A program made the translations under genes and the position numbers. The notes beneath the pieces were generated by a model, which saw only the letters and a list, made by a program, of their open reading frames with translations, had not been told where the DNA came from and searched no databases. Below, one piece after another: positions 3,406 to 46,885 of a DNA stretch of 64,000 bases (its first letter is position 1; every line of letters starts with the position of its first letter). The DNA is taken from the NCBI RefSeq assembly GCF_058153355.1, contig NZ_CM177019.1; one strand, given 5' to 3'.

Positions 3406-5070
3406 TTAAAACGTTTCCCAGTTCTCTCCGCTATCTGCCACTGCCACTTTGCGCGGCGCAGATGGCGTCACAGTTTTTACTACTGCCGATGCTTCGCGCT
3501 GGCGTTGCTGCTCTTGCTGAATCCGGAACACTGCCACAGCTTCGGTCAGGCGACTGGCCTGCTCCTCCAGCGCGGCGGCGGCGGCGGCAGATTCTTCCAC
3601 CAGCGCGGCGTTTTGTTGGGTTACCCGGTCCATCTCAGCTACTGCTAAGCCAACCTGATCGATACCACGGCTCTGCTCATCAGAAGCCGAAGCAATTTCG
3701 CCCATAATGTCCGTCACGCGGGTCACAGCGCTGACAATCTCTGCCATGGTTTCCCCGGCGCTTTCGACCAGCGTAGAGCCAACATCCACTTTGCCCACCG
3801 AGTCTTCAATCAGGCTTTTAATTTCGCGAGCCGCCTGAGCGCTACGCTGGGCCAGATTACGCACTTCTCCCGCAACCACCGCAAAACCGCGCCCTTGCTC
3901 ACCCGCACGCGCTGCTTCAACCGCCGCGTTCAAAGCCAGAATATTGGTCTGGAAGGCAATGCCGTCAATTACGCTGATAATATCGGCGATTTTCTGCGAA
4001 CTGGTGGAGATATCGCGCATGGTCTGCACCACGTTATCCACCACTTTGCCGCCGCGTTGCGCCGTTTCGGAAGCACTTAACGCCAGGTGGCTGGCCTGAC
4101 GCGCATTTTCGGCGTTCTGCTTCACCGTTGCGGTCAGTTGCTCCATGCTGGCTGCCGTCTCTTCCAGCGAAGCGGCCTGTTGCTCGGTGCGCGAAGAAAG
4201 ATCGTTATTGCCGGTGGCGATTTCGCTGGCACCGCTATAGATAGCATTGGCCCCGTTGCGCACATCACCGACGGTACGCATCAGCTCTCCCTGCATATGG
4301 CGCAAACTCTCTGCCAGTTGCCCCATCTCATTAGAACCATCCACCTCAATCGGTTTCACCAGATCGCCACCTGCAATATGACGAATGCTGTCAATCAGGC
4401 GATTCATTGGCGCTACCAACGAGGCTTTAATACCGAACCAGACGGCGAAGATGACTGCCAGTACGACGATCATCACGCCCACCAGAATCCACATCGCCTG
4501 GCTGTAGGAGGCATTATTATCGCTGACGGCGATATCATAGAGCCGATCGTTTTGCTCCATGTAAGCCACATACTGCTTCTCGAAACCGTCCTGATATCCC
4601 TGAGTCGGCTGATCAAAGAATTCGTTGATTTTGCCTGCACCTAACAGTTGGATCAGTTCCGCCAGCGCATTGTGATAAATATCGTAATTACGTTTGATCT
4701 CTGCCGCTGCGGCGGTGCTCTGACGCGGGTCACGCGGCAATGCTTCGTAATCCGCCCAGTTTTTTTCCGCCTGTTTCAGCGAAATACTGGCACTCTGCAT
4801 CAGCTCGGCAACGGTTGAACCGCTACCAATATTGTTCTGATCCATCATGTAGCGGATCCCCGCGCGGTTGAGGGTGTTACGCGTCTGTAACAACGCGACC
4901 CAGCTGCCATTCAGCGTGGATTGCTGCTGGCGAATGGTTTGTAAAACAGTGAAATTTTCTTTGTCATTCTTTAAGGCATTAAAGAACAGACCGCCTGATG
5001 TCAGTTGTAAAAGGCCAAAAACGGCCAAAACCAGCAGTAAGCTGGTCACGATCTTGATACGTTTTAACAT
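3406..5070 (-). CDS. tsr: Methyl-accepting chemotaxis protein I (serine chemoreceptor)
   Basis: [14 protein letters not shown]-terminus, periplasmic ligand domain, conserved MCP signalling region ([32 protein letters not shown]), C-terminal NWETF. Start taken at Met6 of the listed ORF. Confidence 0.95.
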
Positions 5071-37270: not shown

Positions 37271-38443
37271 ATGATTGATTATTCCGCAGCCGGTTTTACC
37301 CTGCTGCAGGGAGCGCATTTGTATGCGCCGGAAGATCGGGGAATTTGCGATGTCCTCGTCGCTAACGGCAAAATTATCGCCGTTGCCAGCAATATCCCTT
37401 CTGACATCGTACCTGACTGCATGGTCGTCGATCTCCGCGGGCAGATCCTCTGCCCTGGTTTTATTGACCAACACGTCCATTTGATTGGCGGTGGCGGAGA
37501 AGCTGGCCCCACTACGCGTACGCCGGAAGTGGCGTTAAGTCGTCTGACAGAAGCGGGCGTCACGTCAGTGGTTGGACTGCTGGGCACCGACTCTGTCTCT
37601 CGCCACCCGGAATCCCTGCTCGCCAAGACCCGTGCGCTCAATGAGGAAGGCATCAGCGCCTGGATGCTGACCGGCGCTTATCATGTACCTTCCCGCACCA
37701 TTACAGGTTCCGTGGAAAAAGACGTGGCAATTATCGATCGCGTGATTGGCGTGAAATGCGCAATCTCTGATCACCGCTCTGCCGCACCGGACGTTTATCA
37801 CCTGGCCAATATGGCGGCGGAATCCCGCGTTGGCGGTTTGCTCGGCGGTAAGCCTGGCGTCACAGTGTTCCACATGGGCGACAGTAAAAAGGCATTGCAG
37901 CCTATCTATGACCTGCTGGAAAACTGCGATGTTCCCATCAATAAGTTGCTGCCGACCCACGTTAACCGCAACGTACCGTTGTTTGAGCAGGCGCTGGAGT
38001 TTGCGCGCAAAGGCGGTACCATCGACATCACCAGCAGCATTGACGAACCAGTCGCCCCTGCCGAAGGTATTGCCCGCGCCGTTCAGGCCGGTATTCCGCT
38101 GGCACGCGTCACCCTCAGCTCTGACGGCAACGGTAGCCAGCCGTTCTTCGATGACGAAGGGAATTTAACCCATATCGGTGTTGCAGGTTTTGAAACGTTG
38201 CTGGAAACCGTGCAGGTGCTGGTCAAAGACTATGATTTCAGTATCAGCGATGCCCTGCGCCCGCTCACCAGTAGCGTAGCCGGTTTCCTTAACCTGACCG
38301 GGAAAGGCGAAATTCTGCCAGGCAATGACGCAGATTTGCTGGTCATGACGCCAGAACTGCGCATTGAACAGGTATACGCCCGCGGCAAACTGATGGTTAA
38401 AGACGGCAAAGCCTGCGTGAAAGGAACGTTTGAAACGGCATAA
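37271..38443 (+). CDS. iadA: Isoaspartyl dipeptidase
   Basis: 390 aa; amidohydrolase with HVHLIGGGGE metal-binding motif. Confidence 0.9.
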   Translation: MIDYSAAGFTLLQGAHLYAPEDRGICDVLVANGKIIAVASNIPSDIVPDCMVVDLRGQILCPGFIDQHVHLIGGGGEAGPTTRTPEVALSRLTEAGVTSVVGLLGTDSVSRHPESLLAKTRALNEEGISAWMLTGAYHVPSRTITGSVEKDVAIIDRVIGVKCAISDHRSAAPDVYHLANMAAESRVGGLLGGKPGVTVFHMGDSKKALQPIYDLLENCDVPINKLLPTHVNRNVPLFEQALEFARKGGTIDITSSIDEPVAPAEGIARAVQAGIPLARVTLSSDGNGSQPFFDDEGNLTHIGVAGFETLLETVQVLVKDYDFSISDALRPLTSSVAGFLNLTGKGEILPGNDADLLVMTPELRIEQVYARGKLMVKDGKACVKGTFETA

Positions 38444-38507
38444 ACGGTTGTCAGCCGCCCGAATGGACGTAGAATGCCCGCAAGGGCGGCTGACAGAGTA
38501 AAACGTA

Positions 38508-39419
38508 ATGGATGACTGTGGTGCGGTTTTGCATAATATTGAAACAAAATGGCTTTATGATTTTCTGACCCTGGAAAAATGCCGCAACTTTTCCCAGGCG
38601 GCAGTCAGTCGCAACGTCTCACAACCCGCATTTAGCCGTCGCATCCGCGCGCTGGAACAGGCAATTGGCGTTGAATTGTTTAACCGCCAGGTGACACCTC
38701 TGCAACTCTCGGAACAAGGGAAAATCTTCCATTCGCAGATCCGCCATCTGCTGCAACAGTTAGAGAGCAACCTTGCAGAACTGCGTGGCGGCAGCGATTA
38801 CGCGCAACGTAAAATCAAGGTAGCCGCTGCACACTCTCTTTCTCTCGGTCTTTTACCGTCAATTATCAGCCAGATGCCGCCGCTCTTTACCTGGGCGATT
38901 GAAGCCATTGATGTTGATGAAGCGGTCGATAAACTGCGTGAAGGGCAAAGCGACTGTATTTTTTCCTTTCATGACGAAGATTTGCTGGAAGCGCCGTTTG
39001 ACCACATTCGCTTATTTGAATCTCAATTGTTCCCCGTCTGCGCCAGTGACGAACACGGAGAAGCACTTTTTAACCTCGCACAGCCACACTTTCCGTTACT
39101 GAATTACAGCCGCAACTCCTACATGGGGCGATTGATTAACCGTACCCTGACGCGCCACAGTGAGTTAAGTTTCAGCACCTTTTTTGTCTCGTCGATGAGC
39201 GAGCTTTTAAAGCAGGTTGCCCTCGACGGCTGTGGGATTGCCTGGCTGCCGGAGTACGCCATCCAACAAGAAATTCGCAGCGGGAAGCTTATCGTTCTGA
39301 ATCGGGACGAACTGGTGATCCCGATTCAGGCCTATGCATACCGGATGAATACCCGTATGAATCCCGTGGCCGAACGCTTCTGGCGCGAACTGCGCGAGCT
39401 GGAGATTGTGCTTAGCTGA
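38508..39419 (+). CDS. hypT: LysR-type hypochlorite-responsive regulator
   Basis: 303 aa; N-terminal LysR HTH; position after iadA. Confidence 0.85.
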
Positions 39420-39804
39420 CATTCTCCAGCGTCGCACTACACCAACCGCCACTATCCCAGACCAGATCATACGTTAGCGGTTCATCGTCGTGGTGCAGCA
39501 TTATCTCAAGGCTGATCGCCAGAGTGTGGCTGTACGCTTCTTTCAAATTGACCTGCAACGCCGCAATCCGAGGCTCATGAAATAACAGTGCAGAACGTAG
39601 TTGACGGCAATACCAGCTCTGGAGATGTTTGTCGCTCTGGTTATGCACTTGCCACTCAGGCATACCTGAAACAAGTAATGAAGGTAATGCCGAATGAGGA
39701 GAATTAAAAAGAGTGAGGAGATCGCTGCATACCGATTTACGCAGTGATAACGTTTTATTGCCTGATATTTCAGGTGAAACAGCCTGAAGTGATTGGCGCA
39801 TCAT
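39412..39804 (-). CDS. iraD: Anti-adaptor protein stabilising RpoS
   Basis: 130 aa from MMRQSLQAV; convergent with hypT, 3' ends overlap by 8 bp. Confidence 0.85.
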
Positions 39805-40475
39805 TTTGCGCACTCCTGACGTTTAGCAACATATGTGGCTTGCCCTGAATACCGGGCACCACTGTATTGATGCTCATTTTCCATAGCCATTCCCTTTTGT
39901 TCATTACATCCATGTCAGTCTGAGACAGGCCTGAATCCTGTCAGCAAAGTATAAAACCTTACTTGCCTATGAATATCTACTGACTTTTCAGGAAAAAAGT
40001 CATGATTTGATAAAAATCATCAAACTCAAAAAAAAACTGCTAGTATATTCTGAATATTCCGAATAGTTACGTAGATGAAAATACTTGTCACCGCCGCTAC
40101 TTAATCCCGGCGGGACATTATTTATTTTCGTATAATCAACCATGTATTATTTGAAACAATTAGTTTGTAAATAATATAAATTGATAACATATCAAATACA
40201 TCAAAAACACCATTCACAGGCATTATTAATATAGACATCAATATAACAACATCAAATTCCAATTAGTAATAAGATATGCTTTTTAATTGCATGCAAATAA
40301 TTTTAAATGAGCGTTTTTTGATACTTTAGAGTGTTTCCCACCCTTTAATATGACCGTGTAGAGTTGATATCACTACAACAGAAACATGCATGTCATTTGT
40401 TTACTTCTCTTTTTACTACAGAAAAATTTATCTATTTTTCTAAGCATCAGTGAAATACTCATAAAGGTAACTATT

Positions 40476-41306
40476 ATGTCTATGCCATTAAGCAATACCG
40501 CTAATAACCAAATCTATACAAATAATCACTTCCTTCATCATCCAAAAGTCGACAATAAGTTAACACGTGAATATGAATATGCACGCATGGATACGGGAAA
40601 TATCTATCTCCTGCCTCTTACTCGTGGCAATAACCATAATTACGATGGAAAAAGCGTTGTCGAAATTAGAAAACTTGATATTAGCAAAGAGTCCTGGCCA
40701 TTTAATTATGTGACAGAAACATGCAGAGAATTCAATGGTATTACAACAACAGGACGTATGCTCTATCGAAACTTGAAAATCACCTCAGCTTTAGACGAAA
40801 TATATGGTGGTATATGTAAAAAGGCGCATGCTGCCACAGAGTTAGCGGAAGGATTACAACTAAATTTATTTATGAAGAGCCCTTTCGATCCTGTTGAGGA
40901 ATATACAGTTCATGAAATAACATTAGGCCCTGGTTGCAATGTTCCAGGTTATGCTGGAACCACGATAGGATATATTTCAACCCTTCCAGCTTCTCAGGCA
41001 AAAAGATGGACCAATGAGCAGCCAAGGATTGATATCTATATTGATCAGATAATGACGGTAACAGGGGTAGCAAATTCTTCCGGATTCGCCCTTGCCGCAT
41101 TACTTAATGCTAATATTGGAATGGGAAATGACCCAATAATTGGTATAGAAGCTTATCCAGGTACCGCGGAGATCCATGCAAAAATGGGATATAAAGTTAT
41201 CCCCGGTGATGAAGATGAGCCACTCAAACGCATGACTCTGCAACCGTCATCTCTTCCAGAACTGTTTGAATTAAAAAATGGTGAATGGAATTATATTGGT
41301 AAATAA
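40476..41306 (+). CDS. yjiC: Uncharacterised protein YjiC
   Basis: 276 aa from MSMPLSN; AT-rich; position between iraD and uxuR. Confidence 0.75.
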   Translation: MSMPLSNTANNQIYTNNHFLHHPKVDNKLTREYEYARMDTGNIYLLPLTRGNNHNYDGKSVVEIRKLDISKESWPFNYVTETCREFNGITTTGRMLYRNLKITSALDEIYGGICKKAHAATELAEGLQLNLFMKSPFDPVEEYTVHEITLGPGCNVPGYAGTTIGYISTLPASQAKRWTNEQPRIDIYIDQIMTVTGVANSSGFALAALLNANIGMGNDPIIGIEAYPGTAEIHAKMGYKVIPGDEDEPLKRMTLQPSSLPELFELKNGEWNYIGK

Positions 41307-41446
41307 CCACTGGGAAGAATGAGTACTAATATTCAGGTTATACAGATAGTTAAACAATACCCTGCAATTTACAAAGTAATACTCATTGCAACTTCTTAAT
41401 TTAAGAAAGCGCAAGGAACGTTTACCCTTGCGCTTATCATAATAAG

Positions 41447-42220
41447 TCAGGCGTCGACTTTATCCAGCGGCCATGAATCAAACAGATAGCCATCAAAATA
41501 AATATCGTCAACGTTCGAGAATTCAAGCAGACGTTGCTTCACGTTTTCCAGATGCTGCCACATTGCCAGCTTCGCCGCTCGGGCGTCTTTTTTGATTAAC
41601 GCGGCGAGGATCTGTTTGTGATCGCCCAACCACTCTTTGCGATACAGGCTGTCATCCAGATGGCTGTGCAATTGGATCCACATTGGATTGTTTTCCCGCC
41701 ACTGCCAGGACTGACGGAATAGCTCCACCAGCATGCTGTTATGCGTCGCTTCGGCAATGGCGAGATGGAACTGCATGTCACCGCTTTCGCTGCTGCCCGG
41801 TGCACTGGAAGCCAGCTCACGCTCTTCCAGTTGCAATGCCTGACGCATTTTGACGATATCTTCGCGGGTAGCCTGCAGGGCGGCAAATTCCGCGATGTTA
41901 CTTTCCAGTAACTGACGCGCCTGTAACAGCTCAAAAGGACCCGCATCATTGCAAACGTTGGCATCCGGACTGTCTGTGTTGTGGCTGCCTGAGCTATCAA
42001 GAACATATATACCGGCACCCCGGCGCACTTCCACCAGCCCTTTGATCTCCAGCATGATCAGCGCTTCACGTACCACCGTCCGCGTGACATCAAGCATTTC
42101 TGCAATTTCACGCTCCGGCGGCAGCCGCTCGCCAGGATTGTACGGCGTCTTTATGATCAGATCGCGGATCATCGCCCCGACTTCCTGGTAAGGTCTTTGC
42201 GCAGAGGTGGCAGATTTCAT
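41447..42220 (-). CDS. uxuR: GntR/FadR-family repressor of hexuronate genes
   Basis: 257 aa; GntR HTH; upstream of uxuBA. Confidence 0.95.
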   Translation of the reverse strand: MKSATSAQRPYQEVGAMIRDLIIKTPYNPGERLPPEREIAEMLDVTRTVVREALIMLEIKGLVEVRRGAGIYVLDSSGSHNTDSPDANVCNDAGPFELLQARQLLESNIAEFAALQATREDIVKMRQALQLEERELASSAPGSSESGDMQFHLAIAEATHNSMLVELFRQSWQWRENNPMWIQLHSHLDDSLYRKEWLGDHKQILAALIKKDARAAKLAMWQHLENVKQRLLEFSNVDDIYFDGYLFDSWPLDKVDA

Positions 42221-45498: not shown

Positions 45499-46842
45499 AT
45501 GCATGTGCTTAACATTCTTTGGGTAGTATTCGGTATCGGCCTGATGCTGGTACTGAATTTGAAGTTCAAAATCAATTCAATGGTGGCTTTGCTAGTGGCG
45601 GCGCTGTCCGTCGGGATGTTGGCGGGCATGGATTTGATGTCGCTGCTGCACACCATGAAAGCGGGCTTCGGCAACACGCTGGGGGAACTGGCAATCATTG
45701 TTGTGTTCGGTGCGGTCATTGGTAAATTGATGGTCGACTCCGGCGCGGCCCATCAGATAGCGCATACGCTGCTGGCGCGTCTCGGCCTGCGCTATGTCCA
45801 GATATCGGTGATTATCATCGGCCTGATTTTTGGTCTGGCGATGTTCTATGAAGTGGCCTTTATCATGTTAGCGCCGCTGGTTATCGTCATTGCCGCCGAA
45901 GCTAAAATTCCGTTCCTGAAACTGGCTATTCCGGCAGTAGCGGCTGCTACCACCGCACATTCACTGTTCCCACCGCAGCCGGGTCCGGTGGCGCTGGTGA
46001 ATGCTTATGGCGCGGATATGGGGATGGTTTATATCTATGGTGTACTGGTGACAATCCCAAGCGTAATCTGCGCAGGCCTGATTCTGCCGAAGTTCCTCGG
46101 TAATCTTGAGCGCCCAACGCCATCATTCCTCAAAGCGGATCAACCGGTGGATATGAATAATCTCCCCTCTTTCGGCGTTTCGATTCTGGTACCGCTGATC
46201 CCGGCGATCATTATGATCTCTACCACTATCGCCAATATCTGGCTGGTCAAAGACACCCCTGCGTGGGAAGTCGTTAACTTTATAGGTTCATCGCCGATTG
46301 CAACGTTTATTGCGATGGTGGTTGCATTCGTACTCTTTGGCACCGCGCGTGGTCATGACATGCAGTGGGTGATGAACGCCTTTGAAAGCGCGGTAAAAAG
46401 CATTGCGATGGTGATTCTGATCATTGGTGCGGGCGGCGTGCTGAAGCAGACCATCATCGACACCGGCATTGGTGACACCATCGGCATGTTGATGTCCCAC
46501 GGCAATATCTCGCCCTACATCATGGCGTGGCTGATCACTGTGCTAATTCGTCTGGCGACGGGTCAAGGTGTGGTTTCGGCGATGACTGCCGCCGGGATTA
46601 TCAGTGCTGCAATCCTTGATCCAGCAACCGGTCAACTGGTTGGCGTGAATCCGGCGCTGCTGGTGCTGGCGACAGCTGCAGGTTCCAACACCCTCACCCA
46701 CATTAATGATGCCTCATTCTGGCTGTTCAAAGGTTACTTTGACCTGTCAGTAAAAGACACGTTGAAAACATGGGGTCTGCTGGAGCTGGTCAACTCCGTG
46801 GTTGGGCTGATTATTGTGTTGATTATCAGCATGGTCGCGTAA
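45499..46842 (+). CDS. gntP: GntP-family fructuronate/gluconate transporter
   Basis: 447 aa polytopic GntP-family permease, divergent from uxuA. Confidence 0.9.
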
Positions 46843-46885
46843 AAGAACGCCAGAGCCTGCCAATGGCAGGCTCTGTTCGGATTGT

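Follow-up and report, generated by a model that had tools for sequence, protein, structure and literature searches.

The hypT-iraD locus

The genes considered here, hypT and iraD, stand tail to tail within the window, by which we mean the whole 64-kb stretch of DNA that was analysed, and their coding regions run into each other at their 3' ends (Table 1). The plus-strand ORF contains the HTH_1 and LysR_substrate domains of Pfam, which match it as far as residue 297 of 303, and the minus-strand ORF contains a GPW_gp25 domain and matches chain B of PDB 6OD1 over IraD residues 17-130. Homologue searches recovered thousands of orthologues of both. The Pfam domains and the RefSeq names agree with the identities that an earlier note, made from the sequence alone, had proposed for the two genes. 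The stop codon of idlP, which encodes the iraD leader peptide, overlaps the start of iraD. Two alternative starts were also observed in this neighborhood: a GTG at 39813 (133 aa) lies three codons before the RefSeq ATG of iraD at 39804 (130 aa), and the ORF of yjiC (DUF2686) begins at 40386 (306 aa), as against the annotated 40476 (276 aa).

Table 1. Coordinates of the features at the hypT-iraD junction (positions are those of the window)
Feature	Position	Strand	Basis or remark
hypT (yjiE/qseD), LysR-type regulator, 303 aa	38508..39419	+	ORF, Pfam, RefSeq
iraD (yjiD), RssB anti-adaptor, 130 aa	39412..39804	-	ORF, Pfam, RefSeq, PDB
CDS overlap TTAGCTGA	39412..39419	both strands	sequence, ORFs, RefSeq
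idlP, iraD leader peptide (ORF27)	39801..39884	-	RefSeq annotation, PMC5574718
Palindrome left arm, in hypT codons R296-V301	39394..39409		centroid fold, inverted repeat
Loop GCTTAGCTG, enclosing the iraD stop and the TG of the hypT TGA	39410..39418		
Palindrome right arm, antisense to iraD codons A124-V129	39419..39435		centroid fold, inverted repeat
Polymorphic stem position	39427		C39427A in an O157-like strain, C39427G in two others (L081, L082, L083)
End of the match to GimA-positive genomes (after …GCTTAGCTGACATT); site of the GimA island or the pptE/ptsP remnant elsewhere	39423..39424		
iadA-hypT intergenic hairpin GTCAGCCGCCC…GGGCGGCTGAC, 24-nt loop, -27/-30 kcal/mol	about 38446-38495 (also 38450..38495)		

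Read directly, the sequence from 39400 to 39423 is tggagattgtgcttagctgacatt. Within it hypT ends GAG ATT GTG CTT AGC TGA, with the TGA at 39417-39419, and iraD ends GAG AAT GTC AGC TAA on the opposite strand, with the TAA at 39412-39414 (TTA on the plus strand), leaving 8 bp common to the two coding sequences. Both proteins terminate in a serine encoded by AGC, and the central AGCT is common to the two gene ends. The stop positions and the 8-bp convergent overlap described in the earlier note are thus confirmed by the sequence and the ORFs, and two genuine genes on opposite strands share their terminal bases. RefSeq annotates the identical overlap in the closest strain, MB50 (99.8% identity), and in K-12 NBRC 3301, and the same arrangement follows from the MG1655 record NC_000913.3 (iraD 4556993..4557385, hypT 4557378..4558289). 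The overlap itself is therefore already known, in the sense that it is present in public reference annotation. The haplotype of the window is a rare one, 12-13 of 5,426 complete E. coli genomes being at least 99% identical to it over 37271-42220. Compared with K-12, each of its three genes iadA, hypT and iraD differs by about 4.5%, a high figure for core genes of this species.

An ordinary convergent overlap between unconstrained tails

Overlaps of this kind are common in E. coli, for which 663 overlapping neighbor pairs, 75 of them convergent, have been reported (PMC4161906). Like other prokaryotic convergent pairs, hypT and iraD lie on opposite strands, share a short overlap confined to their last codons, and probably came to do so when one gene ran on as far as the next stop codon, in line with the loss of a stop codon or the 3' extension proposed for convergent overlaps in general (PMC4161906, PMC2716372). 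We find no substantive difference from that class, of which this pair is a typical member tied to a specific, structurally variable locus. In the 64-kb window, using the MB50 annotation, it is the sole overlapping pair among roughly eight convergent ones.

The earlier note had also held that the two transcripts must overlap. This stands for full-length mRNAs, which share at least 8 nt because a message that ended before its own stop codon would be a non-stop message; what does not stand is the distinctiveness of the arrangement, given that RNA-seq of K-12 found complementary 3' ends in 276 of 370 convergent operons (~75%), with a mean overlap of 286 nt (PMC4161252). Taken with the 75 convergent overlapping pairs, these data make both the overlap of the coding sequences and that of the transcripts ordinary in this organism.

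The overlap is also cheap, since both of the ends involved are unconstrained tails. In IraD, family conservation stops at W121, and the residues beyond it vary in length and sequence: CSATLENVS in the A-type haplotype to which the window belongs, HRTMPQ in the B-type and QSLGQGY in E. albertii, with the Citrobacter homologues stopping one residue after the tryptophan. The crystal structure of the RssB-IraD complex was obtained with a construct spanning residues 17-130, of which only 18-124 were modelled, leaving 125-130 unmodelled (PMC6546054). The last residues of HypT are likewise variable (VLS, EPG or RLS), and differ again in other genera.

A palindrome spanning both stop codons

An imperfect palindrome of 15 bp (39394-39435) is centered on the overlap and carries the two stop codons in its loop region, which allows a hairpin to form around each stop. 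This palindrome is an addition to what the reference annotation of the overlap contains. In the centroid fold 39394-39405 pairs with 39423-39435, with one bulge, and 39407-39409 with 39419-39421, and an inverted-repeat search delimits arms at 39398-39409 and 39419-39430 that are 92% complementary. The predicted RNA fold has a free energy of -24.3 kcal/mol on the hypT strand and -26.8 kcal/mol on the iraD strand, corresponding to z scores of -3.9 (plus strand) and -5.2 (minus strand).

Does this structure have a role at the 3' ends of the two genes, or is it an accident of their coding sequence? The latter reading would have the palindrome arise as a template-switch quasi-palindrome, or from the chance presence of Leu-Glu (CTG GAG) in both tails, with the transcripts ending elsewhere, by Rho action inside the partner gene. 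The composition of the arms speaks for it: they consist of the same coding hexamer and its flank (GCTGGAGA on each strand), and arise because both of these unconstrained tails encode Leu-Glu. So does natural variation, in that the alleles at 39427, which are synonymous in Leu126 of iraD, break the pair with G39402 without compensation. The prevalence of such uncompensated alleles argues against strong selection on the stem. No covariation support for the hairpin was found among the sampled E. coli variants, some of which break pairs, and the two differences seen in Escherichia sp. MOD1-EC7003, which preserve pairing as G·U on the hypT strand but not on the other, carry no significance. A U-tract 3' of the stem is absent on both strands, the sequences there being ACUACACC… on the plus strand and GCAGUUCGCG… on the minus strand, and a consensus scan of 38300-40400 returned 0 sites resembling a canonical intrinsic terminator. 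The RNA 3' of the hypT stop is C-rich and rut-like (C/G of 1.8 over its first 80 nt), which makes Rho-dependent termination within iraD a realistic alternative. Nor does the hairpin extend to tight hypT junctions in general, a candidate trait that we rejected on finding only modest structures at the hypT junctions of Citrobacter and Salmonella.

Against an accident stand the stability of the fold and its position. None of 200 shuffles was as stable on either strand, and about 0.04-0.06% of 12,790 sliding 49-nt windows in the 64 kb were. Only three sites in the 64 kb reach -24 kcal/mol or below on both strands, namely the iadA-hypT intergenic region, the stop-spanning hairpin and a site after gntP, and the first and the last of these occupy classic, terminator-like positions at 3' ends. 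Furthermore, the hairpin is seated exactly on both stops, and the alleles weakened at 39427 are still predicted to fold at about -15 to -20 kcal/mol. On balance we regard an accidental palindrome as a serious possibility, though one at somewhat worse than even odds, and the hairpin may act as a shared bidirectional 3'-end element. Any such action would have to contend with terminating ribosomes, which would melt the hairpin, since on either strand the 5' arm is coding sequence.

Two observations concern the other strong hairpins. The sole plus-strand match of the region to a sigma-70-like promoter (TTGTCA-16-TAGAAT, 38448-38475) overlaps the left arm and loop of the iadA-hypT hairpin, so that a putative promoter of hypT may be interleaved with the terminator of iadA; in the promoter scan of 38300-40400 as a whole, matches did not exceed the shuffle expectation. 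Directly behind the stop codon of gntP, on the side facing fimH, lies the symmetric hairpin AGAGCCTGCCAATGGCAGGCTCT (46831-46879, -26/-28 kcal/mol), which has the look of a bidirectional terminator. A search of 38000-41000 with the Rfam covariance models gave no match at E values up to 1.

The stop-spanning hairpin can be compared with two kinds of known terminator. The first comprises the bidirectional, overlapping terminators of non-canonical type that lie between convergent genes of E. coli, such as that of ynaJ-uspE (Ju et al. 2019, as presented in bioRxiv 10.1101/2022.10.23.513370). The shared features are a convergent gene pair, a hairpin region common to both strands, here at 39394-39435, and the lack of a canonical-terminator appearance; overlapping 3' ends, too, would be expected for hypT and iraD. 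There are also differences: the arms of the hypT-iraD hairpin are coding sequence of both genes and its loop holds both stops, and these genes are probably weakly expressed, whereas the collision model is most successful for pairs with high expression. The second kind is the canonical Rho-independent bidirectional terminator, as exemplified in GimA-positive strains by the hairpin following hypT and the one separating ptsP from iraD. With these the hypT-iraD structure has in common a GC-rich symmetric stem at convergent 3' ends, but it lacks a U- or A-tract on either side and lies inside the coding sequences rather than in a spacer.

Adams et al. 2021 list neither Term-seq 3' ends nor regions of Rho termination for iraD, hypT, yjiE or idlP, and their tables contain none at 4,557,0xx-5xx, an absence that probably reflects low expression of the locus.

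Junction states within E. coli and the GimA island

We surveyed 5426 complete E. coli genomes with a 140-nt or 53-nt probe across the junction. The contiguous, A-type junction was present in 4879-4880 of them (about 90%), and its core is nearly invariant across these genomes. In the remaining ~10% of E. coli the overlap is absent, the two genes being separated by the 20-kb GimA island or by a remnant of ~0.4 kb. The right junction of GimA occurs in 512 of the complete genomes; about 247 of these appear to be GimA-positive, an estimate from partial matches of the 53-nt probe that was checked in one strain, and about 266 genomes are of the remnant type. In strains 2A and H22 the block between hypT and iraD is ~20 kb long and has the gene order nhaC, ibeA, dhaR, gcl, hyi, …, dhaK, dhaL, ptsP, which identifies it as GimA, while in strain N1131 some 425 bp, within which lies the 3' part of a PEP-protein phosphotransferase gene, come between hypT and a divergent iraD of 127 aa.

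These states correspond to the three patterns described by Homeier et al. 2010 (PMC2878320): GimA-positive, a 342-bp pptE remnant, and GimA-negative as in K-12, always between yjiD (iraD) and yjiE (hypT), with the island and the remnant nearly confined to phylogroup B2. Aligned to N1131, 2A and H22, the window is GimA-negative like MG1655, hypT and iraD adjoining each other with neither GimA genes nor the pptE/ptsP remnant between them, and all three patterns were recovered here from complete genomes. The searched passages of that paper make no mention of the overlap of the coding sequences in the GimA-negative state, of a palindrome spanning the stops, of the derivation of the last codons of IraD from the end of hypT, or of the further junction states that we describe below for other Escherichia species.

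The island genomes also indicate where the end of iraD comes from. In GimA-positive genomes hypT ends GTG CTT AGC TGA CATT and then diverges into the island, so that the end of hypT and its flank, GTGCTTAGCTGACATT, are present even in strains in which iraD is 20 kb away. The last three codons and stop of IraD in the window, AAT GTC AGC TAA, are the antisense of TTAGCTGACATT. Since the same bases are found in GimA-positive genomes, the end of iraD is read from sequence belonging to the end of hypT. In GimA-positive and remnant genomes, by comparison, IraD ends HRTMPQ*, six residues past W121, at a stop codon of its own that is followed by a separate intergenic hairpin; the GimA-positive genomes have two such hairpins, one after hypT and one after iraD. 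The codons for the remnant-type end of HypT (EPG*) gave no exact match inside ptsP and resemble a divergent allelic version of the same 18 nt.

The two haplotypes differ further in the genes themselves. Between the A- and B-types, identity is 97.5% in hypT and 95% in uxuR but only 81% in iraD; the flanking hypT, iadA and uxuR together span 95-97.5%. iraD is thus represented in E. coli by two deeply diverged alleles (window 39412-39804 against L003:2946-3329), which over codons 1-121 are about 81% identical and show 22 non-synonymous and 32 synonymous codon differences, and the boundary of divergence coincides exactly with the hypT-iraD junction. The B-type haplotype lacks yjiC, and idlP is unannotated in it. 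In strain 2A a CATT occurs at both ends of GimA, which read, with a slash at the boundary, …GCTGACATT/ATTCTGC… (L077:12374-12422) and …CCCGTCATT/TACTGCGG… (L078:30088-30175); this repeat would fit either a microhomology-mediated deletion or a 4-bp target duplication. A simple one-step origin of the A-type from a GimA-positive genome by deletion between the CATT motifs was considered and rejected, as it would leave the B-type tail and stop on iraD; the ~19% difference between the iraD alleles is likewise too large for a simple one-step derivation.

The junction in other Escherichia and other genera

Across genera, iraD adjoins hypT only in Escherichia. In Citrobacter, Salmonella and Pluralibacter the convergent partner of hypT is instead an aspartate-racemase-like gene, 4-7 nt away, and in Entomohabitans (L016) and Hafnia (L018) hypT overlaps such a gene, by 16 and 18 nt respectively. 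Within Escherichia the junction assumes several further states: 1) In E. whittamii (L006:4892-4912) hypT and iraD overlap differently, by 21 bp, with a new IraD tail. 2) Escherichia sp. E1V33 carries the remnant form, with a ptsP remnant. 3) In Escherichia sp. MOD1-EC7003 hypT is kept, and of iraD only the last 22 codons remain. 4) Two lineages (L085:2800-3000 and L088:1546-1746; GCA_000208585.2 and a Logan assembly) have lost hypT, and the last ~20 nt of the gene (…GAGATTGTATTTAGCTGA) persist there as the end of iraD (GKVS*). 5) In E. albertii (L086:2790-3060) hypT is entirely missing. The variation of the junction across the genus fits a history in which stretches were repeatedly deleted and replaced and each gene read through to the nearest stop. 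None of this variety, as judged from the sequences compared, would fit a conserved regulatory module.

Several of these cases have features of their own. The overlaps of E. whittamii, Entomohabitans and Hafnia are independent convergent overlaps at the 3' end of hypT. In the two hypT-less lineages the relic of the gene lies directly after the iadA terminator, where it still supplies the stop codon of iraD. A 605-bp contig of the Bacillus coahuilensis m4-4 assembly (NZ_ABFU01000118.1) matches HypT residues 275-303 at 100% and the full IraD at 94%, and is almost certainly E. coli contamination.

Origin of the overlap and competing explanations

We favor the view, to which we assign a probability of about 0.7, that this is an ordinary tail-to-tail overlap that resulted from rearrangement of the GimA locus, carries a hairpin around the two stops, and was not selected for cross-regulation. 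According to this proposal, structural rearrangement at the GimA (yjiD-yjiE) locus created the overlap, selection for cross-regulation playing no part. In the GimA-negative haplotype the iraD frame would run on to a TAA lying antisense in hypT codons 302-303, which would be permitted by the short unconstrained tails of both proteins, the IraD fold extending to W121 and the HypT match to about residue 297. Each mRNA could then fold a hairpin of -24 to -27 kcal/mol around its own stop, and this would serve both genes as a non-canonical bidirectional pause or termination site or as an element protecting the 3' end, in the place of the separate intergenic hairpins that the GimA-positive arrangement would use. 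Were the two mRNAs to end just after the hairpin, they would overlap by about 45 nt or more, and any antisense or interference effects of this are expected to be incidental.

A stronger version of the role of the hairpin, which we think unlikely but not negligible, is that the GimA-negative haplotype acquired a terminator embedded in its coding sequences after the loss or absence of GimA and its two flanking terminators, with the palindrome now the main bidirectional determinant of the 3' ends. If this were so, the disordered C-termini of the two proteins would have been molded, with Leu-Glu on both strands, into a palindrome; termination would be sensitive to ribosome occupancy, as the 5' arm is translated; and the variants at 39427, such as the O157-like one, would alter read-through of iraD and hypT or the stability of their mRNAs.

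We consider it improbable that the overlap serves cis-antisense control or transcriptional interference, whereby hypT (hypochlorite) and iraD (RpoS stabilization; DNA damage and stationary phase) would repress each other through collision of RNA polymerases or formation of an RNA duplex. The full-length transcripts are indeed complementary over at least 8 nt, or about 45 nt if they end past the hairpin; there is no canonical terminator between the genes; convergent collisions and overlapping 3' ends are documented in E. coli; and about 4880 genomes share an almost unchanged junction core. However, ~10% of E. coli separate the two genes by 0.4 or 20 kb, and whole lineages of Escherichia lack one partner, be it hypT or iraD. 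Overlapping convergent transcripts are moreover the rule in E. coli and no mark of regulation. What is known of the control of iraD concerns the 5' end of the gene, where the promoters P1/P2, DnaA, ppGpp/SspA, and CsrA by way of idlP, to which iraD is translationally coupled (PMC5574718), come into play. A literature search for links of iraD to hypT/yjiE, Term-seq or antisense transcription found nothing relevant, and no paper tying the two genes together. Regulatory coupling of hypT and iraD is accordingly unsupported, and the comparative data point against it, because the arrangement is not conserved in strains with GimA or its remnant or in the hypT-less and iraD-less lineages. Finally, an annotation artefact, with one ORF truly starting or ending elsewhere and no real overlap, might be suspected from the shortness of iraD and the alternative upstream GTG in its ORF, but is effectively refuted, as the stop codons are unambiguous, the overlap concerns the 3' ends only, both products match their families over their full length, IraD residues 17-130 have been expressed and crystallized, and PGAP agrees with the curated MG1655 record.

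Significance

Returning to the favored reading, an ordinary overlap left by rearrangement, the overlap would carry little weight for regulation: existing annotation already contains it, its class is a common one, and the pair shows no conservation as a functional unit. It offers instead a worked example of how an unconstrained protein tail may come to read to the first stop inside a neighboring gene after rearrangement at a known island site. The natural alleles of the junction, namely the intact A-type, the 39427 variants, the GimA remnant and the GimA-positive form, would be well suited to tests of what a coding-embedded hairpin does to convergent 3' ends. Whoever compares K-12 with B2/ExPEC strains for IraD/RpoS or HypT phenotypes, too, is dealing with iraD alleles ~19% apart and genes whose 3' contexts differ.
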